NCBI GenBank assembly: GCA_963758525.1
Contig: CAVWVQ010000003.1
Span: forward strand, 1,024,001 to 1,088,000
DNA: 64,000 nucleotides
Direction of reading: 5' to 3'
DNA from: an uncultured Phycisphaerales bacterium
GTDB taxonomy: Bacteria > Planctomycetota > Phycisphaerae > Tepidisphaerales > Tepidisphaeraceae
Each line of letters begins with the position of its first letter. Positions within the stretch are counted from its first letter, which is position 1. Of the stretch, positions 30,998 through 49,366 are shown in pieces. The position numbers and the translations under genes were made by a program. Below the pieces are notes generated by a model. It worked only from the letters and a program-made list of their open reading frames with translations, had not been told where the DNA came from and did no database searches.

Positions 30998-33900
30998 TTA
31001 CGCTCCGTCAGATTTTGCAACGTCGCTCACGGCATCATTTTGCCGCATCCGCTCCCTGGCTCTCCTTTTCGCGTCCAGAAGACTGTCGGTATAACCAGCG
31101 CCTCCCTGGGCGCTTTCCCTCCGCTGGACTTGTCTGAAGAAACGGGAGCCGACTGCGACCCACCCACGAGGCTGGTGATGTCTCCCTCGACGCCTTTGCC
31201 GACATTGAACCGCGCCCTGGGATCGGGGAGCTGCGCGACCGGCGTTGCCGCGGGCCCGCGACTGACCGCTTCCGTGCGCCGAGTGACAACATCCCGCCGA
31301 ACGTCCTTCAACGCCGCCAGCGTAGTGATCGCGTCGCCGCGCTGAAGCGTCGTGAAGCTGCGCACCCGTTCCGCCACGGCAAAGCCCATCCGCTTGGTCG
31401 ATTGCCAGTCCCACGCGATGCGCCGCACCGCGACATCCGTCAACACCAGCCCCAGCAGGATCATGATCAGCATGTCCCACAGCGGTGCCGACTGCATCGC
31501 CGGCGCCAGCCCATCGCGCGAGAAGATATCGGCCTGCGCCGCGTCCCACGAACTGATCAGCCGGCCGCCCGTGCGCAAGCGAATCTCTTCGAGCTGCGCG
31601 TCGTTGCTCTGCAGATCGCGCATCTCGGGGGAACTGTCCATCGACACGCCGGACATCAGCATTCCGGTTTTTCCGTCGCTGCTGCGGTACCGCAGGCCGG
31701 CCACATACGTGCCGGATTCGGCCGTCGCGAAGTCCCCTTCATAAATTCCGGGGGCCGTCTGATCGAGTCGGACCGGAATATCTTTCATGTCCGGCCCGAC
31801 AACCGTGCCGCTGATGTTCAGAAAATTCTTCCCGCCTCCCTGGGCATCCACCGCCTGCACGCGAACGTGCCCCTTGCCGCCTTCGATGCGCGTATCCACT
31901 TCAAAATCGGGCGACATCGGAGCGCGCGAAACGCTGCGGATCACCTGCGTCCAGAACTTCGCGTACGAAGGTGAGCTGACCCAGAGCACCCCCACTTTTG
32001 ATGTGCATCGCCCGTAAACACCACCGATTTGCCCAGACCCGCCTGCCAGTGGCCGAGGATTGGGTCGCTCATCTTCCCGGACACGAGCGGGATGTCCACG
32101 CCGGGATCGAACTTTCGGCTCACCAGAACCTGCCCGAACAGCGGCTCAAAAGAACCGATGCCGCGCACCAATTCGTCAGAGGCATCGACCAACCGGACGG
32201 GGATGCCGTTCGTGTTTTCCTGAATCAGACTGCGGCGAACGATCTGCGCTTCCTTGATGAAGATTTGCGGAAGCTGATTGGGGGCCTGGTTGATCGGCCC
32301 ATACGCCCGGCCATGCGTTCCCTTGGCAAGATCGCTCATCGCCTGGGGGACCGTCGGCGAACTGGGATCCTCGGCAAATGCCGTCACCGTCGAGACGCTG
32401 ATCTTGTTGTCCACGCAAGCCTGAATCGTTGCCGGACTGGCGCCGCCCGAATCGCCGTCGCTGATGACGATGACGTGCTTCTGCCGGGCGTTCGATTCGA
32501 TCAGCCCTTTGGCGTTCCCCGGGCCGCCCCCTTTGAGGGTCAGCTCGATCGCCTCGTTGAAGTCGGGGAGATCGCCGTCGTGCATCTTCTTGATGGCATA
32601 CTTGGCGGTTGTCCCGTCCCCTTTTTCGCGGAGCGGCAGCACCCATTCGCACCCGCCGCCCATCGGGTTGTAATCGACGATCCCCACTTCATCCTGCGCG
32701 CTGAGGGCATCGATCGCCTGCAAGGCGCACTGTTCGCCCCAGTACGTCCCCTCGGGAATTTCGCCGGGATCCATCACCAGCACCAGCGCCCCTTTCCCCA
32801 CCATCCGCTCGGCCGGAATATCCATGTTCACCGGCAAAATCTTCTCTACTTCCGACCCCGCCCAGCCGCCGGCGCCAAAGGCGTGCTCTCCGCCGATCAT
32901 GATCAGGCCGCCTCCGAAATCGTGCACGAAATGGCCGAGCATCGCGTCTTGATCAGTCGTCACGCCGCCCGCCCCCCGCGGCACGTTGTCGAGAATTACC
33001 ACGTCGTAGTCCTGCATGTAGAGCAGGTCGGTGGGAATGCGATCCGCGGTGATCTCATGCAGCTCGATCTTTTCGTCCTTCAGGGAATTGGCCAGCGTCT
33101 GATCGAGATTCCCGCCGGCGTCGTGCGAGTTGTTGACGTACAGCACTTGCCCCTTCCCCCGCACCACGGTGAATGCGTCGCCGGTATTGTTTTGAGCCAG
33201 CGTATCGACCTTTCCCTGTCCCGGATCGGGGATGAACTCCGCGCTGAACCGATGAACCCCCCTGCTGTTCAGCGCCGGCACCTGAATCGTTTTGTGATTC
33301 ATCCCCGGCTGCAGCGTCACCGCGACAGGATGGTCCGTCAGCGGAACATTGCCGTCCCCGGTTTCGTGCGTGACCACGATCTTTCCCGTCACCGGCTTGT
33401 CGTTGGTCGATCGAATATAAACATCGAGACTGAACGGCTCGTTCTCCCGCCGCCACGACGGAGCAACGAGCCGCTCGACCATGATCTCGTTGGTGAGATT
33501 GTACTGGAGCGGGAAAACGTCGATGGGAATGTGCATCGACTCGGCAAGCGTGAGAGCCGCGTTGAGGTCGCCGGCGGTCTGGTTCCCGTCCCACATCAGC
33601 AGGATGCGATGCATCGTGTCCGGCGACATGCTTGCCATCGCCAATTGCAGCGCTGACGCAACATTCGTTCCCGAAGAAGAAACCGGCGTCCCCCGTCCGT
33701 CGAGGCTCAGGGTGCGATCGGCAATCGCTTCCACCAACGGAATCCCCCGAAAACCCACGACGCCGATCTTGTCGTCCGGCTTCTTCCGCTCATCCTTGGC
33801 CAGGGCCATGAAGTATTGATCGATCGACCGCTGCAGCGACGGCCCCGGATACTCCTGCACCATCGTCGTCGAGTCGCTCGCGTCGCGCAGGCAATAGACC

Positions 33901-34154
33901 TCGACATTGGTCGCCGCGCTCTGCCAACGCAATCCGCTCAGCAGCGCCACCAGCGTCAACAGCACGGCCAGCCGCACGCCGATCGTCACCCATTTCCGGA
34001 CCCCGGTCATCCCCGTCAACGACCGCAGCCCCAGAAAAAGGACGGGCGTTGCCAGAACCGCAAACGCGATTGCCGCCACCCACCACGAGCAATATTCCAG
34101 ACGGAACGGCAGCGGAACCACGGCAAGCATCAGCGGGAGTTGAGTAGGAGTCAT
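30998..34154 (-). CDS. Membrane-anchored double-VWA + GATase1-like domain protein; two apparent frameshifts
   Basis: DASDS and DPGE MIDAS-like motifs, WDGNQT and ISDGD, GGGLIMIGGEHAFGAGGW, and WQAGLGKSVVFTGDA. Shifts at ~31995 (W...YAKFWTQVIR) and ~31105 (TDSLLDAKRRAR..., stop at 30998). Confidence 0.82.
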
Positions 34155-34253
34155 TCGGCATCCGCCCCGCAGCATCCACCGACAGTTCGAGCACCGCCAC
34201 AACCATCAGTCATCAGCAATAACCCGCATTATAGACCCACCCGCACGCGACGC

Positions 34254-34321: not shown

Positions 34322-34369
34322 CAGGGCAACGACAGTTACTACTGCTCCGAAAAGAGATGTGGGAGACCA

Positions 34370-34486
34370 AGAAATGGCCAAGGCCCAATGGCCAACAAAA
34401 TCCCAAATCGCAATGACCAATGGGAGAACCAGCCTTGGGACTTGGACTCTTGGTGCTTTGTTGGCCATTGGGCCTTGGACATTTCT
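34370..34486. repeat. 30-bp inverted repeat element (MITE/REP-like)
   Basis: AGAAATGGCCAAGGCCCAATGGCCAACAAA (34370-34399) versus TTTGTTGGCCATTGGGCCTTGGACATTTCT (34457-34486), one mismatch. Confidence 0.85.
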
Positions 34487-34564
34487 GCTCTGAAAGGAGA
34501 CGCTACCCAATGCCAGACGCGACCCCATTTTCATTCTCTCTGGGCGTGGCGCCCTCATGAAAAC

Positions 34565-34635
34565 TCGGGGAGAGGGCCGGGGTGAGGGTGATTTCGAACG
34601 CCGAGAAACTTTGATAGTCGAAATCACCCCGGAGT
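34565..34635. repeat. Degenerate GGGAGAGGGCCGGGGTGAGGG-type palindromic repeat
   Basis: GGGGAGAGGGCCGGGGTGAGGGTGATTTCGA...TCGAAATCACCC. The right arm is partly deleted. It resembles the element inside wzt. Confidence 0.7.
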
Positions 34636-34799
34636 TGCAGAAGGCATTCACCAGCCCGAGGGACAAAAGAAACGATGTTTTGCGCGGCCCCGTGCTTCTG
34701 ATGGCTCGCCTCGGTGTCTCCGTGCCTCCGTGGTGAACTCTTTTTGGCCTCGGGCATGAAACTCCAAAGCCTCGTCGCATGACGTCTGCAGCACGCTGG

Positions 34800-36493: not shown

Positions 36494-36972
36494 TCACGCC
36501 GCTGAGGTTTGTGCCAACGCGGCGAGGGCGGCGTCAACATCGCGGCGTTGTTTGGGTGAAAGGTGTTCGCCCTCGCGTCGAAGCAGGTCGCGCATGACGG
36601 AGGGGAACTCGCAGGCGCGGAGCAACTGATCGTAGGCTTTGTCCTGAAGGCTGCCGCCTTCGTAACGGGCTAGCGTGGCGGGGCTGGTGCCAAGCAGGGT
36701 AGCGAATCCATCCTGGCTAAGAGCATACTTTTCGCGAATAGCGCGGATTTGCTGCGGCGAAAGAAGCCCATGACGTTGGCGGTATTCGGCATAGAGCCTG
36801 ACCGTCGGATCGCCGAAGCCTTCCTCGATCACCGATTCACCGCAATTCAGGCAGATCAGGCGGGGGACATCCAGGGCAATTTTTTCTCCTCGGACTTCGT
36901 ACTCTTCGCGCACCGTTTGGCGCGAGCCTCACGATCTACTTCACATATCGGGCAATAAATTGTTCTGCTCAT
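36494..36972 (-). CDS. mqsA: MqsA-type antitoxin (Zn ribbon + HTH); apparent frameshift near 36920
   Basis: MSRTIYCPIC (ATG overlapping the toxin stop), then CLNCGE...IRAIREKYALSQDGFATLLGTSPATLARYEGG in another frame. Confidence 0.82.
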
Positions 36973-37291
36973 GATCCACCACCTTTCAGTGGATAAGCCA
37001 GGGGGTGCTCGGCGGGGTGAAAGCTGCGCACAACCGGTCGAGAAAATGGCCTTTTCGGATCGAGGCGGAGCTTGACGTACACGTCGATGCCGCTTTCAAC
37101 ACAGCCAAAAATCCAGACCTCCTTGCCGTCCTCATCCCTGTCCATTTCAGGGCCCAGGCAAAAATCTCCCGGGCGCAGCGAGCAAATACGCTCAATGGCC
37201 TGGGCTTGAGTCATATTCAGAGCCACCAAGCCTTGAATGTTCTTTGGCGTTTGTCGGAACTCAACCTTCGATCCGAACTCCACGCAGACAC
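36969..37291 (-). pseudogene. mqsR: MqsR-type toxin, probably 5'-truncated at a RAYT-flank site
   Basis: KNIQGLVALNMT...DFCLGPEMD...VWIFG...VYVKL...SFHPAEHPL. Toxin-like sequence begins immediately after GGGTCACAAGCC, with no RBS or normal start. Confidence 0.7.
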
Positions 37292-38089
37292 GGCTTGTGA
37301 CCCGGGTCACAAGGTCACAAGCCTATTGCCGCCACGGTTTGCCTTCAGCCTTTTCTCGGCGACTTCGATTTCGGCGGTCGGCCGATGGGGCGCAATGAAC
37401 TTTCCGTGCCCAGCGCCCGGGCCGTCCGTTGCGACCAGCGATCATCGCCGTAAGGCCGCCCACGATCAATCGCGCGGCGCAGTGCAGCCAACTCTTCCTC
37501 GGTTTCCGCCCGGTTCAGCAGGGCGGTCCATCTCACGGGTCTTTCCACCGGCCATGCGGTCAGCATCGGAGCGACCGAACAGCTGCGGTCGTCCCTGGCC
37601 CACAGCGAATTCCACCGCCAGTCCTGCGCCTTCGCCACCAGATCGGCCCGCAAGGCATTGCGCTCCACGTACCGGCAGACACTCAGAAAATGACCGTCCT
37701 GCTGAATCGGAAAACTCCGGAACCGGCCCTGGTACAGATGCCCGCGCCCCACGCTGTGGCGATGGGCATGCCAGCGGGCCGCGTGGGTCATGGTCAGCCA
37801 TTGCATAAACCGCGATAACTGGCCGTCGGTTTTGGGCCATAGCACCAAATGGAAATGATTGGGCATGAGGCAATACGCGCAGAGCCGCATTCCCCGGTGT
37901 ACATCCAGCGCCTCGACCAGCACCTTCTCGAACGCCTGGTAGTCCCCGGCATCCTCGAACAGCTTGAGCTTTCCTGGCGCGCGGTTCATCACATGATACG
38001 CCAGGCCGCCAGGGGAGAAGCGAGGTTTGCGAGCCATCAACCCAGTGTATCAGCCCATCAATCGCAAGGAAAGGCTTATGACCCCCTTT
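37292..38089 (-). mobile_element. RAYT-like unit: HUH transposase bounded by inverted short sites GGCTT[AG]TGACC
   Basis: AAAGGCTTATGACCCCCTTT at 38070-38089 and GGCTTGTGACC-CG-GGTCACAA-GGTCACAAGCCTAT at 37292-37326 flank the gene, with opposite orientations. Confidence 0.7.
37345..38037 (-). CDS. REP-associated tyrosine transposase-like (RAYT/TnpA-REP, Y1 HUH) protein
   Basis: YHVMNR, AYCLMPNHFHLVL (HUH), GHLYQGRFRS, RYVERNALRA (catalytic Tyr), WRWNS and a C-terminal RPIGRP. Confidence 0.92.
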   Translation of the reverse strand: MARKPRFSPGGLAYHVMNRAPGKLKLFEDAGDYQAFEKVLVEALDVHRGMRLCAYCLMPNHFHLVLWPKTDGQLSRFMQWLTMTHAARWHAHRHSVGRGHLYQGRFRSFPIQQDGHFLSVCRYVERNALRADLVAKAQDWRWNSLWARDDRSCSVAPMLTAWPVERPVRWTALLNRAETEEELAALRRAIDRGRPYGDDRWSQRTARALGTESSLRPIGRPPKSKSPRKG

Positions 38090-38688
38090 CTTCACTCGCG
38101 GCGACGTTTCCCGCCGCGGATTACTCGGCCGACACTGTCGGCGCAATCCGCAAATCACTGAAGGCAGCGATGGTAAGCGAGGGCTTGTTTTCCGATGAGG
38201 CGGACGCGCTGCTGAACACATGGGAAACCTCTTACTTTCGACGTCCCGGACTGCGACTGTTCTTTCTGTGCCCCGACGACTGGACGAACCGCGTGTTGCC
38301 TTTGCATCTGTCGGTTGATGCCGATATCAAGCGCGTCATGATCGGGCGAATCGAGATTGTGACGCCCGAGCAGCGCCAACTGCTCTCCCGCATCGCCACG
38401 GGACCGGCCTCCAATGCCGGCCAATGGAACTGGGTCTCCGATGCTCTGAAGCAGGCGGGCGGCGGGCGCGACGACTATTACCGTGAGGACTGGTACCTGG
38501 GCGCGATAGACGGACGCACCAGCTTGCAGAGTCTGCACGTCCAGATGCCCGATGACTATCGCGAGTACCTGCAACTCGGCCGCTTCCGCAATACGCTGAT
38601 CCTGGACGAAGCCCATCGCCGCCCAACTACCGCGTTAACGGCTTTCATCGATAATTACTCGCTTGAGGCAACCGGGGGGAAGCGGTGA
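38090..38688 (+). pseudogene. 3' fragment of a conserved hypothetical gene (GLFxDEAxALLNTW...RVMIGRIE type)
   Basis: Protein-like sequence starts directly after the site at 38089 with no start codon or RBS. The upstream part of track ORF 37849 is RAYT antisense. Confidence 0.65.
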
Positions 38689-38750
38689 TCCATCGAGCCT
38701 GTCTATTTCCGGGAGAGCCATGCTCCGAATCTGTTTGGTGGGAAGAACTA

Positions 38751-39097
38751 GGTGACGCGAGTCTTAATATCGCGCATGCCACGTCAGTTTTGCCCTTTCA
38801 GCTTGCTTTTTGGCTTCCGCCATCCCGGCGGACGGCCGCGGGGGCGGAGGCTCTGCTGCAAGTGTAGCTTCTGGGCCGTCCGCTGCACCCATGGCGGGCT
38901 TCCAAAGGGACGGGAACGCTCGATGCTGAGCGTCACCGCCTTCTCCTCTGCCGCCGTCTGCGGCTGGTTCACCAGTTCCAGCCAACCGCAGGGCCGATCG
39001 ATCGGCCAATCCGAAAGCAGGGACGCCAGCGCGTGGCCGCGATGCTGCCGGGCAAAACAGCTTCCCCATCGCCACTCCTCGGCCCGCTCCACCAGGC
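38751..39097 (-). pseudogene. 3' remnant of a second RAYT-like transposase with its downstream site
   Basis: LVERAEEWRWGS...DWPIDRP...RPFG...WVQRTA...SLRPRGRP aligns with the C-terminus of the intact RAYT. It is followed on the minus strand by ATATTAAGACTCGCGTCACC. Confidence 0.85.
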
Positions 39098-39147
39098 TCT
39101 GTCTGAAAACCCTAAGTCCTCACGACGCCTCAGAATGGCTTTGGCCG

Positions 39148-39582
39148 CTAGGAGTTCATCGCCTGCTGTGCTGTGTCGACCCTAGACATTCGTCCCACCC
39201 AAGCGTTGCGCAGTATTTCATCGCTTCTTTTCTCCGCTGTCGGCCATTCCATCTCCAACTGTCCGAGAAGTGCAAGGACAACGACAAGAAATCGCTTTAT
39301 GCCGGGAGAACCACGATTCATCTCCCGGGTAAGGCGCTGAAGCGACTGGTCGAGGCTTGAAGTATCATTGATGTACGGCAAGAAAAACTCGTACGTGGCA
39401 ACCTTGAGTGCAGCAGCGAGCTTGTCGATGGCATCGAACGATGGGACTTTCTGCCCCCGCTCAATTTCCGCAATGTGCTTGTAGCCAACCGAAGCCGCTC
39501 TGCCCAACTGCTCCAAGGTCAACCCCCGGCTCTTGCGAAGCAGTCGTAATCTCCGGCCGAACGTAATTTTGGCGGTTTCCAT
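39148..39582 (-). CDS. XRE/Cro-C1 HTH transcriptional regulator
   Basis: FGRRLRLLRKSRGLTLEQLG...IAEIERGQKVPSFDAIDKLAAAL. Confidence 0.88.
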   Translation of the reverse strand: METAKITFGRRLRLLRKSRGLTLEQLGRAASVGYKHIAEIERGQKVPSFDAIDKLAAALKVATYEFFLPYINDTSSLDQSLQRLTREMNRGSPGIKRFLVVVLALLGQLEMEWPTAEKRSDEILRNAWVGRMSRVDTAQQAMNS

Positions 39583-39922
39583 CAGTGAAGCGCCGATGGT
39601 ACGGAGCACCGCAATTTGAATAACTATCCAACGGATGCCATTTGTATTGATTTTTCTATCCAATGGACGTAACTTACCCGCGCTCTATCGCTGCCGGGGC
39701 AGCATCGCCACTGGCGGCGCGTATTTCCGTTCAACTGCCCTCAAAGGGACGGGGGCGTGGCGGTAGGGTTGAAGCTCAAGTCAATTCGCTGATCTTAGCA
39801 AATTCTGATACGCCAGCGGGGAGGATTTTGAGTAGTTGCTCACTGCGGCGGATGAACGGAGCCGGAAATGCAATCGGAGTGACGAACTTCGGTGGCTAGC
39901 GGAGACAAAGGAGGAGCCCAGT

Positions 39923-41437
39923 ATGAAATGGTTCAAATCGGCGTTCACGTTGACTTTCGCCGGGATCGTATTCGCATCTGGCTGCAGCAAACGCGAGAGC
40001 TCGCAACAGCCAGCGGCGGCAGCGGCAACTGGAGCCGCGGCACCCCAAACACAACCGAAGGAAGCGACCGGCGAAACAGCACAGGCGCCAGTGGTTCCCG
40101 CGCGGGATGTGCCTCGCGAAGCGGAAGTGCGGTTAGTCAAAGCGCTGCAAGAGGATGATTTCGAGGCTATCTACAAGAACGATTCGCGCGCTCAATCGCA
40201 CGAAAAGGAAGTTCGTGCCAACCAACCGGTCTTCGCACAAGAGAAGCTGCTTGCTGACTCGCATGACGCGGCGAAGCGAGAATTTCGGTCTGAACCGCTG
40301 GGGCAATTCGCCGCGCCCTACGTTGAATTGGCAAACCTGCTTGAGTTCATGCCCTCGGTCGAGTTCGTTGAGGAGAAGGCGCGCGAGGACGTTACCGACG
40401 TGTACGTCCGGTTCAAGTTCCGCTCACCGGACTCGGGTCCGCTGATCAGGACGCGCGACGGCGATGTCCAATTTGCAGTGGTCCGGGAGGAGGTGGGCAA
40501 GCTGTCGTTCAATCAAGATGGGGCTTTCGTAGGATATGAACCGGTCCTCGAGTTCCGCCAGCTATTTCCCGTGGTGCCCCATATCCTATGTATCTATTAT
40601 GACTATCCGTTCCACATGGGTGCCCCTCCGAAAAACGAGTACGACTGCTTCATTCTTGCTTCCGCAACGCCGTCGAAATGGGGAGCCAGCCGACTGAACG
40701 GCGAGCAACTGGCAACCCCGTCGAATACCCATTTTATTGCCACTTCGCCCGGCGAATACATCGTCTCGGCTACTTTCACGAACGCCGCCGGGGTCAATAA
40801 CACTGAGTACGTGTCATTCAAGTTGAGTGACGACAGCCAGCATCTCACTTCGCATTTCGTGCGCCAGTTTTGCCATTCCCGGTGGAAGCAAGCGTCGATT
40901 AAAGCCCTTGGGATGGCGCTCTTCGATCGATTCCCTATGAGTGACGACCCAGTCGCTGTGGTGGACCCCCACGGCAATCCAAGGTACATCTCCCCACAGC
41001 CGGACGCACCACCAACGCTAAGCGAGGATGAAGCGCGCGCGAAAAGCGCCAAAAATCTTACGCGGATAGGACTTGTAGCGCAGATGTATTCAAACTCGAA
41101 AGGCAGGCTCCCTAACAACTTTGCGGAACTCGTTCCGGAAGATGATGGAGCCTCCGTTACAACGTTTCTCAATCCACGGCTGCGCACCACAGGCCCGACT
41201 GCGGACGCTATGAGCGATCAGGAAAGAGGGGAATGGGCCGACGCACATGGCGATTACGTGTGGGTTGGTGGGGGAAGGACGGATTTCGGAACCGCCGCCA
41301 CTCTGTTGGCATACGAAAAACCCGAAGGACTGAAGGACGGCATTAACATGCTTTACGGCGACGGACATGTGACATTTCAGGATATGCAGACGGCCAGACA
41401 ACAGATCGAAGCCGCGCACCAGAAAGTGTCGAACTGA
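39923..41437 (+). CDS. Lipoprotein with C-terminal DUF1559-like/H-X9-DG-type module
   Basis: GGAGG RBS, lipobox FASG-C, and a C-terminal SAKNLTRIGLVAQMY...LP...YEKP...INMLYGDGHV module. Confidence 0.8.
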   Translation: MKWFKSAFTLTFAGIVFASGCSKRESSQQPAAAAATGAAAPQTQPKEATGETAQAPVVPARDVPREAEVRLVKALQEDDFEAIYKNDSRAQSHEKEVRANQPVFAQEKLLADSHDAAKREFRSEPLGQFAAPYVELANLLEFMPSVEFVEEKAREDVTDVYVRFKFRSPDSGPLIRTRDGDVQFAVVREEVGKLSFNQDGAFVGYEPVLEFRQLFPVVPHILCIYYDYPFHMGAPPKNEYDCFILASATPSKWGASRLNGEQLATPSNTHFIATSPGEYIVSATFTNAAGVNNTEYVSFKLSDDSQHLTSHFVRQFCHSRWKQASIKALGMALFDRFPMSDDPVAVVDPHGNPRYISPQPDAPPTLSEDEARAKSAKNLTRIGLVAQMYSNSKGRLPNNFAELVPEDDGASVTTFLNPRLRTTGPTADAMSDQERGEWADAHGDYVWVGGGRTDFGTAATLLAYEKPEGLKDGINMLYGDGHVTFQDMQTARQQIEAAHQKVSN

Positions 41438-41535
41438 TTCCCATTGGTCTGTAGCGAGATAGCATCTCGGGGCGATGCAAACCGGTCGCGAACCTGGCGC
41501 GGGCCGACAACGTCAACTTAGGAAGGAAAACAATT

Positions 41536-41886
41536 ATGAACGCTCGGCTTTATACTCTGCTGCTGATCGGTGCGCTTGCGATGAGCGGATGCGCCTCGAA
41601 CGGAGCGGATTTCAACTCGGACAAGGTTGCCGACATCCACAAGGGCACTACTACCGAACCTCAACTGATTTCGATGTTCGGGGAGCCGAACCAGCGGAGC
41701 ATCGATTCGGACGCCCGCACACGTCTGGTCTGGTTCTACGCTCATGCCCACGTCACTGCCTCAAGCTTCTTCTTTCATGGCGGCGGTGCTAAGACTCAAA
41801 AGACACTAACGGTGACGCTCAAAGATGGGTTAGTGACCGATTATTCGTTAGCAGAAGGAGGATCGGGTGCGCGGGTGGGCTCGTAA
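41536..41886 (+). CDS. Small lipoprotein, SmpA/OmlA (BamE)-like domain
   Basis: Lipobox MSG-C, IHKGTTTEPQLISMFGEP and WFY motifs. Confidence 0.78.
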   Translation: MNARLYTLLLIGALAMSGCASNGADFNSDKVADIHKGTTTEPQLISMFGEPNQRSIDSDARTRLVWFYAHAHVTASSFFFHGGGAKTQKTLTVTLKDGLVTDYSLAEGGSGARVGS

Positions 41887-42206
41887 CAGTCGTGGGCACT
41901 CAGATCGCTTCCCGTTTCTTTTGGCCCACGCTCCTTCGGGAGAGAGGCACCGGCAGGGATAGGGTGGGGGATCCCCCAGCAGCACAAAAACACCCCGCTT
42001 CGGGGTGCCTCGTGGAATAGCCGTTATTGCTCCATCTTTCTACATTCCCAACAGACGGCACTTCGGAACTCGTTCCTCTACCAACGCCTCTCGTTCGGGC
42101 TGGCGCCGATATGGTTGTCCGGTAACCTGACGGTCAACGTCAAAAGCACTCGCCGCGACGGCCCGCCGGTAATCGATCGGCTGGATCCAGATCGCGCCGA
42201 GCGGGT

Positions 42207-42258
42207 TGTCAGTTATCACTTCAAATGCCACCACCGATTATCACTTCAAATGCCAACA
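42207..42258. mobile_element. Orphan IS21-family-like terminal sequence
   Basis: TGTC followed by an 18-bp direct repeat TTATCACTTCAAATGCCA (42213-42230 and 42238-42255), the architecture of IS21 ends. No istA/istB follows. Confidence 0.55.
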
Positions 42259-42409
42259 GGTCCGATATACTTTTTCACCTGATCGATTTCAAATCCACGC
42301 TGAGTTTGTGACTGTCGGCAATCACGTCTCCGCGGGTTGCTCACCCCCCACAGAAGATACTGCCACAGAGGCGTTGGTGTCTTCCGGAGGGGAATGCGGA
42401 TTAACTAAA

Positions 42410-42521
42410 GGTGACGCGAACCTTAATATTGCGTATGCACCGTCAGTTTTGCCCTTCCTGCTTGCTTTTTGGCTTCCGCCATCCCGGCGGACGGCCGCGG
42501 GGGCGGAGGCTCTGCTGCAAG
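42410..42521 (-). repeat. Second copy of the RAYT 3' end + site (direct repeat of 38751-38862)
   Basis: 112-bp ungapped match with 8 mismatches counted by eye. It encodes LQQSLRPRGRPPGWRKPKSRKGKTDG... on the minus strand. Confidence 0.92.
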
Positions 42522-42560
42522 AAGGAAGTGATACGGAAGGAAGTGATACGGGGACGCAGC

Positions 42561-43732
42561 TAGTGTAGTGTATCATAAATAAGCTATCCTAATTATTAGT
42601 TGCGTGTCTGATCCTCCAACAGGAGGATAACCCCTTGCGCATCGCACCCGATGTCACCGTCACGGATGAACAACGTAGAGTTTTGGAACAGTGGTCGCGC
42701 GGCCGAAGCACGCCGGCACGACTGGTCCTTCGCTCGCAGATTATTTTGCAGGCTGCCGAAGGCGTCGCCAACAACCTGATCGCGCAGTCGCTGGAGACCG
42801 ACCGGTTGCTGGTCGGCAAGTGGCGCAAGCGATTCATCGAGAAGGGTCTGGAAGGAATCAAAAAAGATGCTCCGCGCGGGGGCCGTCCGCCGGTGAGTCG
42901 CAACGCGATGACCGCTCGCATCATCGAGTGGACCACCCAGAAAAGGCCGAAGAACGCCACGCATTGGAGTTGCCGGACGCTGGCCAGGGAATTGGGGGCC
43001 AGCTCCGCGATGGTCAATCGCGTGTGGCGGGCCAATGGGCTCAAGCCGCATCTGATCCATACTTTCAAGTTGAGCAACGACAAACAGTTCATCGAGAAAG
43101 TCGTGGACGTCGTGGGCTTGTACCTCAATCCGCCGGAGCACGCGTTGGTGCTCTGCGTGGATGAGAAGACACAGATTCAGGCTTTGGATCGCACTCAGCC
43201 GTCATTGCCGCTGAAGAAGGGACGATGCGGGACGATGACGCATGATTACAAGCGGAACGGAACGACGACGCTCTTTGCGGCACTGAATGTAGCCGAGGGA
43301 AAACTCATCGGCACATGCATGGAGAAACATCGGCATCAAGAGTGGATCAAGTTCCTCAGGCAGATCGACGAGCAGACGCCAGCGGACCTGGACTTGCACC
43401 TGATCGCAGACAACTACTCCACGCACAAGCACCCGAAAGTGAAGAGCTGGCTCAAGCGTCATCCACGCTTTCACATGCACTTCATCCCGACCAGCAGCTC
43501 GTGGCTGAATCTGGTGGAGCGGTGGTTCCGGGAGATCACGGACAAAAGAATCCGTCGTGGCGTTTTCCGCAGCGTGCCGGAGTTAACAGACGCGATCATG
43601 GCCTACATCGCAGCGCACAACGAGAACCCCAAGTCATTCGAATGGACGGCAAAAGCCGAGGACATTATTGTAAAAGTCCGACGGGCGCGCGAGGTGCTGA
43701 ATAAGAGTGTATTAGCCTGACACACTACACTA
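42561..43732 (+). mobile_element. IS630-family insertion sequence
   Basis: Terminal inverted repeats TAGTGTAGTGT (42561) and ACACTACACTA (ending 43732). Both ends are in a CTAG context, consistent with TA duplication. Confidence 0.92.
42635..43720 (+). CDS. IS630 DDE transposase
   Basis: N-terminal HTHs (THWSCRTLA) and the triad CVDEKTQIQAL / IADNYSTH / SWLNLVERWF. AGGAGG RBS and TTG start. Confidence 0.95.
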   Translation: MRIAPDVTVTDEQRRVLEQWSRGRSTPARLVLRSQIILQAAEGVANNLIAQSLETDRLLVGKWRKRFIEKGLEGIKKDAPRGGRPPVSRNAMTARIIEWTTQKRPKNATHWSCRTLARELGASSAMVNRVWRANGLKPHLIHTFKLSNDKQFIEKVVDVVGLYLNPPEHALVLCVDEKTQIQALDRTQPSLPLKKGRCGTMTHDYKRNGTTTLFAALNVAEGKLIGTCMEKHRHQEWIKFLRQIDEQTPADLDLHLIADNYSTHKHPKVKSWLKRHPRFHMHFIPTSSSWLNLVERWFREITDKRIRRGVFRSVPELTDAIMAYIAAHNENPKSFEWTAKAEDIIVKVRRAREVLNKSVLA

Positions 43733-44139
43733 GTTGATAGCTTGAAATCTGACGGATTGAGCGTCAGCAAATGGGTGAGACCTTCGGCCTTCATCAAGGC
43801 AACGAGTTTCGTGTCATGGACTTGAACCCCGAAAACGGAGTGGGCCATGACGAGCCGCTTCCATTCCGCGTAGCTGGCGGCAGAATCAGTGAGCACTTCG
43901 ACGGCGAGTTCAATGAGGGCCAGCCGACGTTGTGCTTCCTGGGTCGTCAGACCGAACCCGCCACGGGCGGTGGCAGGCCTGGTCGTGACGTTCCAAAACT
44001 CCACGACATTTTGCATTCCGCAATAGAATGTGTCGCCCCGGCCCTTGAGAAGGTCCAGGGCATCAACCACGTCTTGATGTTGCGGGTCTCCTGGATGCAC
44101 CAGCCTCAGCAAGATTCCCGTGTCGAGCAGATACCGCAT
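43733..44139 (-). pseudogene. PIN-domain (VapC-like) toxin, 3'-truncated
   Basis: MRYLLDTGILLR, EFWNVTTRP, VHDTKLVA and LLTLNPSDFK. The usual final strand is replaced by site/IS sequence. Confidence 0.8.
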
Positions 44140-44306
44140 CAGTCGTGGTCGTCGTAAAGGTCAGCACGAGAAAAGTCTGCCGGGATGGGAGGAAGCGGCG
44201 GCATTCCCGCCGATGCATCATCAAGCCACTGACGAAACTCGGCCTGACGACGTAGCTTCTCCAAAGCTTGGGCGGCTTTTTCGTCAAGTGTCACGGTTGT
44301 CGCCAT
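44139..44306 (-). CDS. Putative antitoxin (55 aa), below the ORF-track cutoff
   Basis: GAGG RBS, then MATTVTLDEKAAQALEKLRRQAEFRQWLDDASAGMPPLPPIPADFSRADLYDDHD*. Its stop overlaps the PIN ATG (TGATG). Confidence 0.7.
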   Translation of the reverse strand: MATTVTLDEKAAQALEKLRRQAEFRQWLDDASAGMPPLPPIPADFSRADLYDDHD

Positions 44307-44410
44307 CGCACATCCCTCGAAAATGAGCTTATCATCGACGCTCCCCTTGGTCCATAATGGAGAGAACTAAAGTGGTGTGGCGAGCAACCGAATCCGGCCG
44401 GTAGCGGGGA

Positions 44411-44593
44411 CGCTGGGAGGCAGCCAAGCGCGGCCGGCCGAAAAAGCCTCCCGGCACCAAGGCTGTGCCGACGCTCATTACCGTCGATCCTCAACTCCTC
44501 CGCCGTGCCGACGCCTATGCGAAAAGAGCCGGCCTCAGTCGCTCCCAGCTTTTTTCCGACGCTCTCCGTCGGCGAATTGAAATCGCGACGTGA
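44411..44593 (+). pseudogene. 5'-truncated ribbon-helix-helix (CopG-like) gene fragment
   Basis: Manual translation gives RWEAAKRGRPKKPPGTKAVPTLITVDPQLLRRADAYAKRAGLSRSQLFSDALRRRIEIAT*. There is an in-frame TAG at 44402 and no start codon upstream of the fragment. Confidence 0.65.
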
Positions 44594-44654
44594 AGATCAT
44601 CTGCCCATTCGAAGCTCGAGTGCTTCCGCGACAACTGGCTGTGACGAATTTTGG

Positions 44655-46790
44655 TTACTGCGCAGGTTCCGGCGTGGCGGTCTCCCGGCCGGGAGCGGTC
44701 GGGGCGGCGGAGGGATCCACCATCCATTGGCACGAGTCGGTGACTTTTCCCTGGCTCGTGATCGCAGTCGCTTTCACTTCATTGTTGCCGGGTTGAAGCG
44801 TCACATTGAGCCAGCGGAAAACCCTGACCTTATCCGGTGAAACCGCGGGCAGCGCCTTTCCATTGATGGTCAGCTCCACCTTGTCACAGTTCGAAAAGAC
44901 CTCAATCTCCGTCGCCGGCTTCCGTCGCGGAGTCGACCGGCTGGAGGCAATGTGGACCATTGGCTTGTCGGTCCAATTCGCCTGATAGAAGAAATAAGCA
45001 TCCTTCTTGATCTTGCGATCCTCGGTCACCAGCCCCTTGTCATTGACGCCGACAAAGCCTCCCTCGTGACGGTGCGCGGATTGGAAATCGAACATGCACC
45101 AGATAAAGGTTCCCCACAGGTGGGGATTGTCCTTGAATCGATCCCAGATCACCTCATGGACGTGGACTTGCCATTGTTCGGAGTGGAGCGGGCCCGCGCG
45201 CTTTTGGGTCAGGGGACCTTCCTGTTGCTCCTTGGGAGCGGGGTTGGCGCCAGCACCATATTCGCTATAGGCGATGCGCTTCCCTGCTTCGGCCGAGTCC
45301 TCCTTAATCAACGACTCAACCTTGTCGATCCCGGCGTACCAGCCAGGATAACGATTGAAGCTGGGGTGGTCAGGAATCTGGTTATAGGTTGTGTGACCTT
45401 TATAAATCGCGCACACGATCAGGCGCGACGGATCCAATTCTTTCGCGACCGCCTTGAGATGCTGGAGCAGGGCATCCGGCGCGGGCGTCGTGCTGAGTCC
45501 CAGCTCATTAAAGAGCCCCCAAAAGGCAATGCTGGGATGGTTGTAACGCTGGAGGATCATTTCGCGAAGCTGCTGCTCAGCGTTGGCGGCAAACTCAGGT
45601 TTGTTGGAAATGAGATTCACCAGCGGAATTTCATCCCAAAGCAGAATCCCATTATGGTCGCAGAGATTGTGGAGATAATCACTCTGGGGATAATGCGCCA
45701 GCCGGATGGCGGTAACGCCCATATCCAACATGATCTGGGCATCCTCATCATAGTTGGCGGGAGTCGCCGCCCAACCCTGATCGCCCCAGTCCTGGTGTCG
45801 ATTCACGCCATGGATCGGATAGGGCTTGCCGTTCAGTAGAAAGCCCCGCTGTTCGCTGATCTCGACCGTGCGCAGGCCAAGTGGTTGACTGATGGAGTCG
45901 GAAATGCCAGTCCCTGCGAGCAGGGAAACCGTTGCCGTGTAGAGATAGGGATCCTTGCGTCCATTCCAACGGTGGGGAGAGGAAATATTCAAACTGAGAA
46001 GAATCGACTTGGTCTTACCCGCTTCAACGGAGACGGGTTGGGTCTGGGTGGCCACGATCCCCCCGCCGGCGTCGGCGATATCAGCTTTGACCTGTACTTG
46101 CACCGGACTGGTTTTGCCGTTGGAAACCAGTGTCTTGACTTCTATTTGCGCCGCCGAATCGTTCAGCGATTTCGTCGTCAGGTAGACGCCGGGAGAGCCC
46201 AGCTCGAGCGGCGATATGCAGACCGGATCCGTGACGATCAGATGGACCGGACGGTAGAGCCCTCCATCGACGTTGAAATCTCCGCCTAAGGGTGCCACGT
46301 CCTTCTGGCCCGAGTTATCGACCTGGACCCGCAACTCATTGGCGCCGGGATGAAGAAGCGGCGTCAATTCGTAGCAGAAGGCGGTGAACCCCCCGCGATG
46401 TTCCCCCAGTTCCTGTCCATTCAGATAAGTCTTCGCGACCAGTGAAGCGGCTTCAAAACGAAGGAAAACTCTTCTCCCCTGCCACTCGGCCGGAACATCA
46501 ATGGTGCGGGCATACCAGCAGTCGCCCCGGTAATAGTTATTTTTGTAATGAGGATCTTTCTTGTGGTCGCCCTGATCGGCGCTCACCGTGTTCCAGGTAT
46601 GAGGGAGGGTGACCGCCTCCCACTGATCCGTCGCTGCGGTCAGGCCCGCGTCCTCTTTGATAAATTTCCAGCCATCGGCGAGGACCTGGTCCTGGCGTGT
46701 GGCCGCAGCTCCAAAAGCGATGGAGCCCCCGCAAAGAATTGCGCCCACGACGAGAACGAAAAAACGGAGTTGGCGTGTCAATCGATGCAC
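44655..46790 (-). CDS. Secreted GH2 glycoside hydrolase (beta-galactosidase/glucuronidase-like)
   Basis: LPHTWN, HRGGFTAF, HGVNRHQD, RLAHYPQ, WGLFNE (acid/base), SEYGAG (nucleophile) and NDKGLVT. Probable GTG start at 46790. Confidence 0.92.
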   Translation of the reverse strand: MHRLTRQLRFFVLVVGAILCGGSIAFGAAATRQDQVLADGWKFIKEDAGLTAATDQWEAVTLPHTWNTVSADQGDHKKDPHYKNNYYRGDCWYARTIDVPAEWQGRRVFLRFEAASLVAKTYLNGQELGEHRGGFTAFCYELTPLLHPGANELRVQVDNSGQKDVAPLGGDFNVDGGLYRPVHLIVTDPVCISPLELGSPGVYLTTKSLNDSAAQIEVKTLVSNGKTSPVQVQVKADIADAGGGIVATQTQPVSVEAGKTKSILLSLNISSPHRWNGRKDPYLYTATVSLLAGTGISDSISQPLGLRTVEISEQRGFLLNGKPYPIHGVNRHQDWGDQGWAATPANYDEDAQIMLDMGVTAIRLAHYPQSDYLHNLCDHNGILLWDEIPLVNLISNKPEFAANAEQQLREMILQRYNHPSIAFWGLFNELGLSTTPAPDALLQHLKAVAKELDPSRLIVCAIYKGHTTYNQIPDHPSFNRYPGWYAGIDKVESLIKEDSAEAGKRIAYSEYGAGANPAPKEQQEGPLTQKRAGPLHSEQWQVHVHEVIWDRFKDNPHLWGTFIWCMFDFQSAHRHEGGFVGVNDKGLVTEDRKIKKDAYFFYQANWTDKPMVHIASSRSTPRRKPATEIEVFSNCDKVELTINGKALPAVSPDKVRVFRWLNVTLQPGNNEVKATAITSQGKVTDSCQWMVDPSAAPTAPGRETATPEPAQ

Positions 46791-46907
46791 AAATATTCCC
46801 TCTTCCTTCGCGTTTTTTCTTCGCGCCTTTGCGCCTTCGCGGCTCTTTATTTTGCGGGTCCTCGAGACCGGGATTTCGAAGAACTCCATCACTTGATCGG
46901 GAAAGGT

Positions 46908-47576
46908 CTATCGCATCGGGGATCGCAGCCACTGCTGAAACGCACGCAAACCCGCATTTTCGTCCATGAGCATCAGCCGGGTGAAACGGTCGACAATCTC
47001 CGGCGTCATGAATGACAGCGCTTCGGACGCGGCGATGGGTTCGTAATCCCCCGACTCCGTGCGCCGAAAAAACGCAAACCGCTCGCCGTCGTACCGCCAC
47101 AGCTCGCGCACGCCCAGAGCGGCATACACGCTGGGGCGATCGATGGGCTCATGCGTAATGTCGATCTCGACCGCCAGATCGGGCGGAGGATCGCGTTTGA
47201 GATCGATGTCCGTGCGGCCGTGGACCGACGGCTCATTCTGAATGTAGTAGCACTCGTCTGCTTCCAAACCCTTCGCAAGATCCTGCCGTTTCCAGGTCGT
47301 TGAGCCGAAGCTGCTGACGGGAATCGCCAGCTCGAAAGTGGCCATCTCGATCAACCGGCCTGCCAGCTTCTTCATTCTCCCGTGAATGAGTGCCGGCGAC
47401 ACGAGCACCAGCCTTCCCTGGTCGTACGTGATGCGCATGTGCTGCCCGTCGGTGTCGCGGAGCAACAATTCGTAGAGCTCCCAGCTCACGTTTTCGAGCG
47501 CCATCACGCCGGCAACTCCGCAAACTCCGAGAATGTCTCTAGTGGCGGTCATGCCGATCTGCTTCTCTCGCGGCAT
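46908..47576 (-). CDS. Uma2/DUF820 family putative endonuclease
   Basis: VSWELYE, GLEADECYY, PPDLAVEIDIT and YAALGVRELWRYDG motifs. Confidence 0.9.
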   Translation of the reverse strand: MPREKQIGMTATRDILGVCGVAGVMALENVSWELYELLLRDTDGQHMRITYDQGRLVLVSPALIHGRMKKLAGRLIEMATFELAIPVSSFGSTTWKRQDLAKGLEADECYYIQNEPSVHGRTDIDLKRDPPPDLAVEIDITHEPIDRPSVYAALGVRELWRYDGERFAFFRRTESGDYEPIAASEALSFMTPEIVDRFTRLMLMDENAGLRAFQQWLRSPMR

Positions 47577-47642
47577 AGCATAACGGTGCCGTTCAGGGTC
47601 GACAATCGGTTCAGACGGTGGCCTGTCCGGACGCTGCCGCAA

Positions 47643-47969
47643 TCACTTCGCGTGCTTCTGTCCCCATTCTTGCAATGCCTTGAGGATCGGGCCGAGCGTT
47701 CGGCCTTTGTCGGTCAGGAAGTATTCCGCGCGCGGCGGGTGTTGTTCGTAAAACCGCCGGTCGACGATCTCGCGATCCATCAGACTCTTCAGCCGGGCCG
47801 ACAGCGTGTTGGAACTGACACCTTGCAGCGACCGCTCAAAATCCCCAAAGCGGAGCGGCCCGCGCTTGAACAGATCACGCAGGATCAGGAGTGTCCATCG
47901 TTCGCCGATGACGTCCAACGTTCGGGCAACCGGGCAGGCCGTGTCGTCTTTCAACTTCATCTGCTTCAT
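47643..47969 (-). CDS. HxlR-family winged-helix regulator
   Basis: CPVARTLDVIGERWTLLILRDL, LSARLK and PPRAEYFLTDKG motifs. Confidence 0.92.
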   Translation of the reverse strand: MKQMKLKDDTACPVARTLDVIGERWTLLILRDLFKRGPLRFGDFERSLQGVSSNTLSARLKSLMDREIVDRRFYEQHPPRAEYFLTDKGRTLGPILKALQEWGQKHAK

Positions 47970-48019
47970 CTTTCGTCTCTTGGGCTGAAATAACAACACC
48001 CGATAGACAAGCAAAACGA

Positions 48020-48046
48020 TAGTGACTACAATAAAACAAGTCACTA
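48020..48046. promoter_or_regulatory. Palindromic operator candidate TAGTGACT-N11-AGTCACTA
   Basis: Perfect 8-bp inverted repeat between the divergent HxlR and membrane-protein genes, just upstream of the AAGGAG RBS. Confidence 0.7.
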
Positions 48047-48061
48047 ACTGAAGGAGACTCT

Positions 48062-48928
48062 GTGATGAATTCCGCACTTGCAGAACGCAGTCGAAAGGCC
48101 TGGAGCTGGTTTCTTCTCGCCGTGGCGTTGGCCGGCGGCTGGTTCGGACTGAATCTCCTGCTGCCAAACCTGGCGGTCGGGCCGATTCCCACACGGCTGA
48201 TGTTCATCATCGCCGTCAACGCGATGTTCCTTTACGGACTCTGGCGGAGCCTGGCGCGCACAGACTTCCCGCAGTCCAAACGCGTCGCCGGCTGGCTGGG
48301 CGTTGCGCTCGTGTTGACGGTCTGGCTTGGGGCAACCTGGGTGCTGGCCGTGAACGGCGTCTTCCAGAAAAGCCTCGGCAAGGTCCCGTCGCTGCCGTTC
48401 GCAATCCTTCTTCCCGTTCTCCCCGGAGCATTCCTGCTGACGCGTTCGCGCACGGTGGCATCGCTGCTGGATGCAACCCCGCCGTCCTGGCTGGTTGGCC
48501 TTCAGCTCTACCGCATTCTCGGCGCGATGTTCCTGGTCTACTTTATTCGAGACGCCATGCCCGGCGCATTCGCTCTGCCGGCGGGAATCGGCGACGTCAT
48601 CACAGGCTTGCTCGCCCTCCCCGCGGCCGTCTGGATTGGCTCAGCCTCTCCAATCGGCACAAGAATCGGCATCCGGTGGAACCTGTTCGGCCTGACCGAC
48701 TTTATCGTCGCCGTCACCATGGGAATGCTGACTTCCCCCGGACCGGCGCATCTGCTCGCGCTCGACCATCCCAACGTCCAGATCGCCATGTTCCCCGCCG
48801 TCATCACCCCGGCTTTCGTTGTCCCCTTTTCGATCCTCCTGCACGTGCTTTCCCTGAGGCAGCTCAAGCGCGGGGCGAAGACATCCGCGGCAATTGCGGG
48901 GAAAGAACCCGTTCTGGCAACCGCATGA
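48062..48928 (+). CDS. Hypothetical multi-pass membrane protein
   Basis: About 8 TM helices; QLYRILG, FALPAGIGD, WNLFGLTD and PAFVVP motifs; AAGGAG RBS. Confidence 0.85.
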   Translation: MMNSALAERSRKAWSWFLLAVALAGGWFGLNLLLPNLAVGPIPTRLMFIIAVNAMFLYGLWRSLARTDFPQSKRVAGWLGVALVLTVWLGATWVLAVNGVFQKSLGKVPSLPFAILLPVLPGAFLLTRSRTVASLLDATPPSWLVGLQLYRILGAMFLVYFIRDAMPGAFALPAGIGDVITGLLALPAAVWIGSASPIGTRIGIRWNLFGLTDFIVAVTMGMLTSPGPAHLLALDHPNVQIAMFPAVITPAFVVPFSILLHVLSLRQLKRGAKTSAAIAGKEPVLATA

Positions 48929-49366
48929 AGGAGGGCCAAATCTAGCAGGGGGCCGCTCCCGGCCTCGAAGCGCGTCCCGTTATTGGTCTGCGTCCCGTTA
49001 TTCGTCAGTTGGATATTAACGCTCGCGTCACCCGCACTTGTTCCGAGGCCTTCGCGTTGTCTCGGCCTCGATCAGAAGCTACTGTTATTCATATGGAAAA
49101 CGTAACACGTACTGCACTGACGGATGGACGGATCTGAAAATTGAACGGGGTCGCAGATCTTCCGGACAAGTCCTGCGGTTTACGGTTCTGTTGCCAACGA
49201 CCAGAATCGTTGGCGTGGCAGAAATCCAGATTCCGTTAATGGAGGGCTACAGCCTGGCGGACAAGGTCGGTGAAGCCGAAGCAAAGAGCATTGAAGAGGA
49301 CCTTCAGGCGCTAGCCGTGCGCGTTGCGGATGCGGTTCAGAGCAGCGTCAGCAAGGCAAGCTAAGC

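Follow-up and report, generated by a model that had tools for sequence, protein, structure and literature searches.

We analysed a window of 64,000 nt (contig C3, positions 1024001-1088000) from the 6.47-Mb genome, in 6 contigs, of an uncultured Phycisphaerales bacterium, for which the best-matching named relatives are Phycisphaerales and other Planctomycetota. An earlier note on this DNA had proposed that an HUH/Y1 transposase captures and shuffles gene fragments between short sites, here called a to g. Our results suggest that TIRYT elements, some intact and others decayed, have piled up in the region spanned by these sites, and that each end of an element is likely nicked, and joined to target DNA, independently of the other end; to this reading we give a probability of about 0.6. 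A TIRYT unit measures ~770 bp: a gene for an HUH/Y1 transposase, bounded on both sides by terminal inverted repeats (TIRs) of 20-25 bp. The seven sites are the TIRs of at least four TIRYT subfamilies and not one site family, and the passenger genes between them are best explained as bystanders in a tolerant hot spot, cut and sometimes stranded.

The sites are terminal inverted repeats of several TIRYT subfamilies

Each of the seven strings occurs once, at the position and on the strand given in the earlier note, and its recognition of one intact Y1 transposase and two 3' remnants was confirmed: the intact protein scores 47.9 bits against Pfam Y1_Tnp (cut-off 23) and the remnants share 93% identity. 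The intact gene lies between sites a and b, which form the arms of one inverted repeat; c and d are the right ends of the two remnants, and e, f and g represent other types of end; by sequence type, a and b are A-type, c, d and g D-like, e C-type and f of a further type. The idea that the sites are asymmetric recombination points holds in that DNA is joined there, and fails in that they are not single points, a and b being arms of one inverted repeat.

The motif G[AT]C[AC]CC, once taken as the mark of a single site family, lies at background frequency (23 occurrences in the region against 22.4 expected) and was rejected as a signal. What distinguishes the ends is their subfamily-specific sequence of 20-25 bp, with 106 matches in the genome against 4 in the reversed genome; transposase copies genome-wide are flanked by inverted repeats of this length, which differ by subfamily. 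The last base of the A-type core, GGGGTCAT, departs from the GGGG[AT][CG]A[CG]-like consensus. Of 53 related loci (three from the same genome and two duplicates included), 38 have the gene flanked by an inverted repeat that matches at 17/22 or better, as against 0 of 37 control windows. End type tracks transposase clade for A, B and C in a tree of the relatives found in this analysis, from which the D remnant was left out. The supposition that one enzyme uses one site family was not upheld, the intact gene having A-type ends and the other types following their own clades.

Folding of the seven sites was in no case better than that of shuffled sequences (z from -1.24 to +1.01), and the GTAG-tagged flanking hairpins of canonical REP-associated tyrosine transposases (RAYTs; REP, repetitive extragenic palindrome) and REPtrons are absent at the sites, in agreement with the first description of them. 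Elsewhere, a different Y1 gene lies between GTAG hairpins at C3:4371000-4371900, a canonical-looking REPtron with 12 matches; a second GTAG hairpin family has 113 matches genome-wide, and some TIRYT tips are found in or beside GTAG hairpins.

In the transposase, H61 (of H61-F-H63), H63, Y123 and N127 are invariant in 46 sequences, and the class 2 motif reads YVERNA in this copy and YVERNP or YVEANP in other family members. The predicted structure (mean predicted local distance difference test score, pLDDT, 93.7) has the TnpA-REP of E. coli (4ER8 in the PDB) as its closest fold (E 8.8e-8), while a PDB sequence search returned nothing significant. A conserved C-terminal extension of ~80 aa, ending in GRP, is confidently modelled beyond the 165-aa length of 4ER8; it gave no Pfam helix-turn-helix (HTH) match, which fits subclass 2.1.1 rather than 2.1.2. 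The NCBIfam REP-associated model scores 57.2 bits, under its cut-off of 80, and this score and the lack of GTAG hairpins accord with the earlier placement in a non-REP Y1/HUH subgroup. Y1 core and motif, flanking TIRs, absent REP hairpins and an extra C-terminal domain occur together here. Judged by sequence, sites and enzyme have the TIRtron/TIRYT anatomy of TnpA-Y1 subclass 2.1, or RAYT group 1. TIRtrons were described in 2013 (Di Nocera et al., PMC3733652), and the account of Quentin et al. 2018 (10.1101/279083) equates TIRYTs with TnpA-Y1 subclass 2.1 and with RAYT group 1, and presents this subclass as the second largest of TnpA-Y1, occurring in 14.9% of strains.

The genome contains 49 transposase-derived stretches, of which 18 reach 600 nt or more. 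Identity among B-type copies is 83-99%, and two on different contigs share 99.1% identity across 741 nt, their flanks being unrelated and without a short target duplication; since copies up to 99% identical sit at unrelated loci, the units move. Short target duplications were not seen in any of 21 two-ended units. Canonical RAYTs have a single non-duplicating gene per repeat family, whereas here the units are multi-copy. The protein was matched in 25 of the 31 genomes searched, the own genome and one unpublished genome being among the 31; the latter was used for just one other count.

After curation, in which two chance-like matches were removed and two added manually, 89 outermost ends were grouped in 35 clusters: 48 adjoin transposase DNA, 13 stand in short dimers and 28 were scored as solo, at least four of which look by eye like degenerate dimers. 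The DNA around the ends is slightly GC-poor (0.590 against 0.607). An additional D-type end at 44362 is tentative, its 11-mer having 6 exact genome matches against 3 in the control, which is not significant alone. Abundant inverted pairs of tandem 7/8-mers (GGGTTCA/GGGTGTCA), whose repeat unit is similar to the TIRYT core, occur at many loci (e.g. C3:4774789-4774919), with 102 matches to a 24-mer. The most array-like case was a metagenome contig (7984 bp) with a full D-type element followed by three D-end groups within 5 kb, between which short genes and a sulfatase-like gene are located.

Junctions at the tips and outcomes of insertion

Tips coincide with breakpoints. A repeat boundary falls at the tip in 16 of 89 ends and at 39 of 1500 nearby control positions. 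The earlier note's observation that neighbouring genes are repeatedly cut at the sites was substantiated: among coding flanks with a paralogue-supported frame, 17 of 23 are cut at the tip against 5 of 122 controls, the subjects being six-frame open reading frames (ORFs), several of them shadow frames or parts of other mobile elements. Of the window's passenger genes, three are broken: the MqsR-like toxin gene, the gene after site b, which lost ~270 codons (its homologues align from about residue 270 of frames of 395-464 aa), and the PIN toxin gene, encoding 134 aa against 154 aa in the closest homologues, the loss being at the inner side of site e. Contigs of three moss samples, possibly of one campaign, carry a D end, of a copy that is not distinguishable, joined into the signal-peptide codons of an esterase-gene copy 94% identical to the gene at 36343, left of the region, in the orientation expected of a deletion from site c.

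The junctions follow a rule. On the C-rich strand, conservation ends 11-12 nt past the core, and position 12, counted from the core, is occupied by a C or a T in 89% of 104 ends of this genome and in 20/20 canonical B ends. For 113 distinct metagenome D ends (out of 76 of the 132 metagenome stretches), the pyrimidine share is 50% at positions 9-10, 83% at 11, 89% at 12 and 45-60% from 13 onward. When the flank restarts within the end itself, its first base is C or T in 37/40 and 15/17 of two sets; in cases with a known uncut target, the base preceding the cut is variable (A, G or T among the cases listed). Junctions lie 11, sometimes 12, nt outside the core, and the flank opens with C or T.

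At least one flank of known origin made 14 of the 21 two-ended units testable, and none of these 14 is a clean insertion with both flanks continuing one target. Four lie within direct duplications that start at the tip (Table 1), and in the other ten a traced flank lacks its continuation on the other side, two of these being weak owing to a short traced repeat. At C3 819 kb the source gene is intact and a 4.5-kb piece of an island is stranded between the copies. At C1 205 kb the duplicated segment is the 5' part of the region of an integron integrase, with an A-type TIRYT element at the joint. Neither source site (LysM-YkuD gene, integron integrase) carries ends, which counts against recombination between two older copies. 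Among 11 metagenome units with usable flanks, one shows such a duplication, joined at +11 to T. Within C3:813700-820700, the 3' part of the LysM-YkuD gene is the portion duplicated around the 4.5-kb island piece; the stranded part encodes DUF932, trypsin-like and nucleoside 2-deoxyribosyltransferase proteins and ends at a C-type mini-dimer.

HUH enzymes leave a 3'-OH and a 5'-phosphotyrosine, and TnpA-REP cuts either side of its repeat (PMC8266576). The TIRYT enzyme would bind the repeat, probably via its C-terminal extension, and nick the C-rich strand at the tip; the target would be nicked 5' of a pyrimidine, and the 3'-OH of the end joined to the 5' end of the target. As the repeats are inverted, the two joins would fall on opposite strands and could be uncoupled, with no need for coordination, and replicating DNA is probably used. 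The relative position of the two targets would then decide the outcome: crossed targets might give duplications of 0.5-6 kb, separated targets deletions, a target within the end a stutter, and a target within the element mini-dimers and orphan ends.

Several points weigh against this interpretation. The evidence comes from sequence data; neither a close strain (best run share 0.07) nor an empty site of the locus turned up, and same-genus genomes have single genes in common with it, with no gene order conserved around them. Seven of the 21 two-ended units lie outside the testable set, which leaves room for clean insertions. A multi-copy repeat, whose local copies are 95% identical as against mostly 83-93% to other copies, is involved in two of the four duplications, and just two of 42 foreign loci were flagged with duplications, of 500 nt (Nitrospira) and 56 nt. 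Unmatched flanks could also be explained by later deletions, other insertion sequence (IS) elements or inter-copy recombination. Junctions carry a one-base uncertainty wherever a C is common to donor and target, and C is frequent in the ends; furthermore, the end seeds are fuzzy and all derived from the own genome. The inner break of remnant 1 is due to an unrelated miniature inverted-repeat transposable element (MITE) and not to a TIRYT site. Finally, the picture is not uniform with respect to the flanking genes, whose integrity the earlier note regarded as decisive against its proposal: three are truncated, while GH2, Uma2, HxlR and the membrane gene look whole.

Alternative explanations and related systems

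It seems unlikely that TIRYTs insert cleanly like an ordinary IS and are scrambled later by host recombination, other IS and random decay. Such a history would suit the clustering of copies 83-99% identical, the packing of clusters with other IS, introns and repeats, and the end of remnant 1 at a MITE, and two direct copies recombining would yield unmatched flanks; however, it predicts elements at the outer duplication borders, where the source sites are intact genes without an end, it does not match the lack of clean insertions among the testable units, and the end stutters restart at a pyrimidine exactly at the tip.

An earlier proposal, that the ends are cassette joints of a domesticated capture system whose enzyme shifts passenger DNA between sites as a gene store, appears quite improbable. 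The solo ends (28/89 without transposase DNA or partner within script limits), the GC-poor passenger blocks, the stranding of island parts by duplication at C3 819 kb and the diversifying role proposed for the subclass (10.1101/2020.03.09.984088) could all be read in its favour, and so could a chimera of transposase pieces that bears three end types at two loci, from which it follows that mixed-end units can be copied. Nevertheless, of 54 successive end pairs 38 are inverted and 16 direct, each of the several end types is bound to its own clade, the transposase genes are multi-copy and decaying rather than single-copy, and cargo is often broken, as in the three truncated genes of the window. 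Of 100 inter-end intervals, 12 recur elsewhere, all of transposase DNA (ten elements, and two that are the one chimera), and none holds recurring host cargo; nor were window passenger genes found beside an end in the fetched foreign loci. Given the prevalence of inverted ends and the absence of recurring host cargo bounded by ends, integron-like capture, and with it the integron-like array of the earlier note, is not supported. Two abundant repeats that cluster with TIRYT elements, X (600-900 bp, multi-copy, with no clear gene, at C3:4263770-4264490 and ~15 other loci) and Y (200-300 bp), were considered as passengers and rejected, their borders being mostly not at ends.

Like this region, integrons are patchworks in which short sites mark the joints between unrelated accessory genes, but they work with the tyrosine recombinase IntI, folded direct-repeat attC sites and whole cassettes. 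No IntI tyrosine recombinase was present among the 20 ORFs scanned in the region, and directly repeated folded sites separating whole cassettes were not observed. The genuine integron of the same genome (C1:198000-211000), with its integrase, attC-like direct repeats of 110-128 bp and two group II intron copies, looks quite unlike this region. A defence island was likewise rejected, as a scan of 13 proteins gave generic HTH matches and one candidate Uma2 match, and nothing else.

That a single resident RAYT, itself non-moving, has spread the sites as REP-like repeats is very improbable: the fold is nearest to TnpA-REP and mini-dimers look like REP doublets, yet hairpin and GTAG are absent, the REP-associated score is below cut-off, 48/89 ends are still joined to transposase DNA, and whole units 99% identical at unrelated loci contradict it unless they are assembly artefacts.

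Published TIRtrons/TIRYTs (PMC3733652) resemble the present elements in the Y1 gene between TIRs, the GGGGWSAS-like core, the absence of REPs, the C-terminal extension and TIR copies as singles, dimers and clusters; differences are the multi-copy state with identities up to 99%, the many subfamilies in one genome and the long tip duplications. RAYT group 1 has the top duplicate rate among true RAYT groups, 6.3% (Bertels et al. 2017, PMC5581495). TnpA-REP and RAYT groups 2 and 3 have the same HUH fold and Y-x3-N motif (PMC8266576, PDB 4ER8); nicking near the repeat on either side and transfer through 5'-phosphotyrosine and 3'-OH is probably also shared. The same source has them require GTAG and a hairpin, cut at C|T (or C|A) and be usually single-copy, whereas here the site is unfolded, the putative cut is 5' of C/T at a fixed distance, and the gene is mobile with its ends. 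IS200/IS605 elements (IS608, ISDra2) are also small mobile Y1 units without a short target duplication, but the summary in 10.1101/279083 describes hairpin ends on one strand and precise peel-and-paste; here the inverted ends lie on opposite strands and outcomes are imprecise, and in place of a short core-only TnpA with Y---Q and subterminal hairpins we found 230 aa, Y---N and unfolded inverted ends. Long variable direct repeats also flank IS1549/IS1634, of 8-514 bp (PMC2266710); these have DDE transposases, in contrast to the HUH enzyme of the present case, where offsets reach ~6.4 kb and flanks are more often unmatched than duplicated. Full and truncated copies of prochlorosin-adjacent TnpA-REP of subclass 2.1 also cluster in variable regions (10.1101/2020.03.09.984088); that study proposed diversifying recombination, noted causation as unresolved and, unlike here, found no inverted repeats.

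Layout of the region and significance for TIRYT elements

Table 1. Features of the region in window coordinates, followed by the four duplications at tips elsewhere in the genome
Feature	Position	Strand	Remarks
MqsA-like antitoxin	36494..36913	-	TIGR03830 match starting at model position 16
MqsR-like toxin gene, first 14 codons gone, cut at site a	36969..37292	-	homologues 121 aa
Site a, damaged A-type right end of intact element	37292..37325	-	
Intact TIRYT (TnpA-Y1 subclass 2.1-like) transposase, subfamily A	37345..38037	-	230 aa
Site b, A-type left end	38071..38095	+	tip ~38095
3' gene fragment, 197 codons, cut at site b tip	38095..38688	+	paralogue and relatives
Site c, D-type right end facing remnant 1	38740..38765	+	
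Remnant 1, 3' part of D-type transposase	38787..39092	-	
Stub (58 bp) of unrelated multi-copy MITE	39095..39152	+	MITE ~270 bp
Low-GC passenger block	39148..41886		XRE regulator, 504-aa and 116-aa lipoprotein-like proteins
Site d, D-type right end facing remnant 2	42399..42424	+	
Remnant 2, 3' part of D-type element, cut by site e tip	~42425..42521	-	
Site e, C-type end	42524..42563	+	tip stuttered
IS630 inserted at TA of site e	42562..43733	+	
PIN (VapC) toxin and small upstream partner	43738..44306	-	toxin lacks ~20 C-terminal residues
Possible D-type tip, then 3' part of BrnT-partner antitoxin gene	44362..44580	+	
GH2, Uma2, HxlR, membrane protein	44655..48928		genes lie between ends and look whole
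Site f, orphan end of further type	48972..49008	-	two tandem partial copies; faces left
Site g, D-like orphan end	49017..49043	-	tip ~49043; faces left
Duplication	C3 881 kb		529 nt
Duplication	C3 2841 kb		~830 nt
Duplication	C3 819 kb		offset ~5.2 kb
Duplication	C1 205 kb		offset ~6.4 kb

Site a has lost its tip, in whose place stand a short tandem and a partial copy in inverted orientation, the inner edge of this copy abutting the cut toxin gene; the neighbouring MqsA gene appears, by eye, frameshifted at its 5' end, near 36913-36964. Seven codons of a possible next gene start terminate, tentatively, at the tip of site c, and the 504-aa lipoprotein-like protein gives a weak H-X9-DG match. 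The stretch at 42207-42393, which adjoins the tip of site d, matches multi-copy DNA of a same-genus genome (G002) at 79-88% and is probably an IS fragment. Site e joins remnant 2 on its outer side and, past the IS630, the PIN gene on its inner side. A second IS630 copy, 99.9% identical, lies at an unrelated CTAG elsewhere in the genome; targeting of the site by IS630 was rejected in favour of ordinary TA insertion.

The antitoxin 3' fragment (44403-44577) has a whole paralogue 27 kb downstream. A second cluster, C3:1091100-1094700, 18-28 kb right of site g, contains ends of types D, B and C, one intact transposase of C-type, and a toxin-antitoxin pair like BrnT, to whose antitoxin this 3' fragment corresponds. 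Outside the sites, a VWA-domain frame stops at 31941 and overlaps the next frame (31941-34202), which suggests a frameshift or assembly error, and unrelated multi-copy intergenic repeat families occupy 34340-34750 and 46790-46860.

The enzyme class and its repeats were already known, and a diversifying role for the subclass had been proposed and later qualified. The account in 10.1101/279083, in the parts available, gives no substrate or reaction for subclass 2.1, and no description of TIRYT mobility, of the junction rule, of long duplications or of capture was found in the literature searched, subscription journals lying outside its coverage. As a tentative extension, which we regard as possible rather than probable, TIRYTs might represent a third mode of HUH transposition, IS-like with unfolded inverted ends, in which two 3'-OH tips become joined to independent pyrimidine targets on opposite strands; every jump would then delete or duplicate hundreds to thousands of bases and strand pieces of islands or integron arrays, and could move DNA that lies between ends of different subfamilies.

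This genome yields evidence that the transposase genes move, several natural enzyme-end pairs and a concrete prediction for the cut, naming the strand, the distance from the core (11 nt) and the position 5' of a pyrimidine. If the ends integrate independently, TIRYT elements would widely give rise to deletions and tandem duplications of kilobase size in variable regions, which would explain the presence of ends at island joints without any cassette system.

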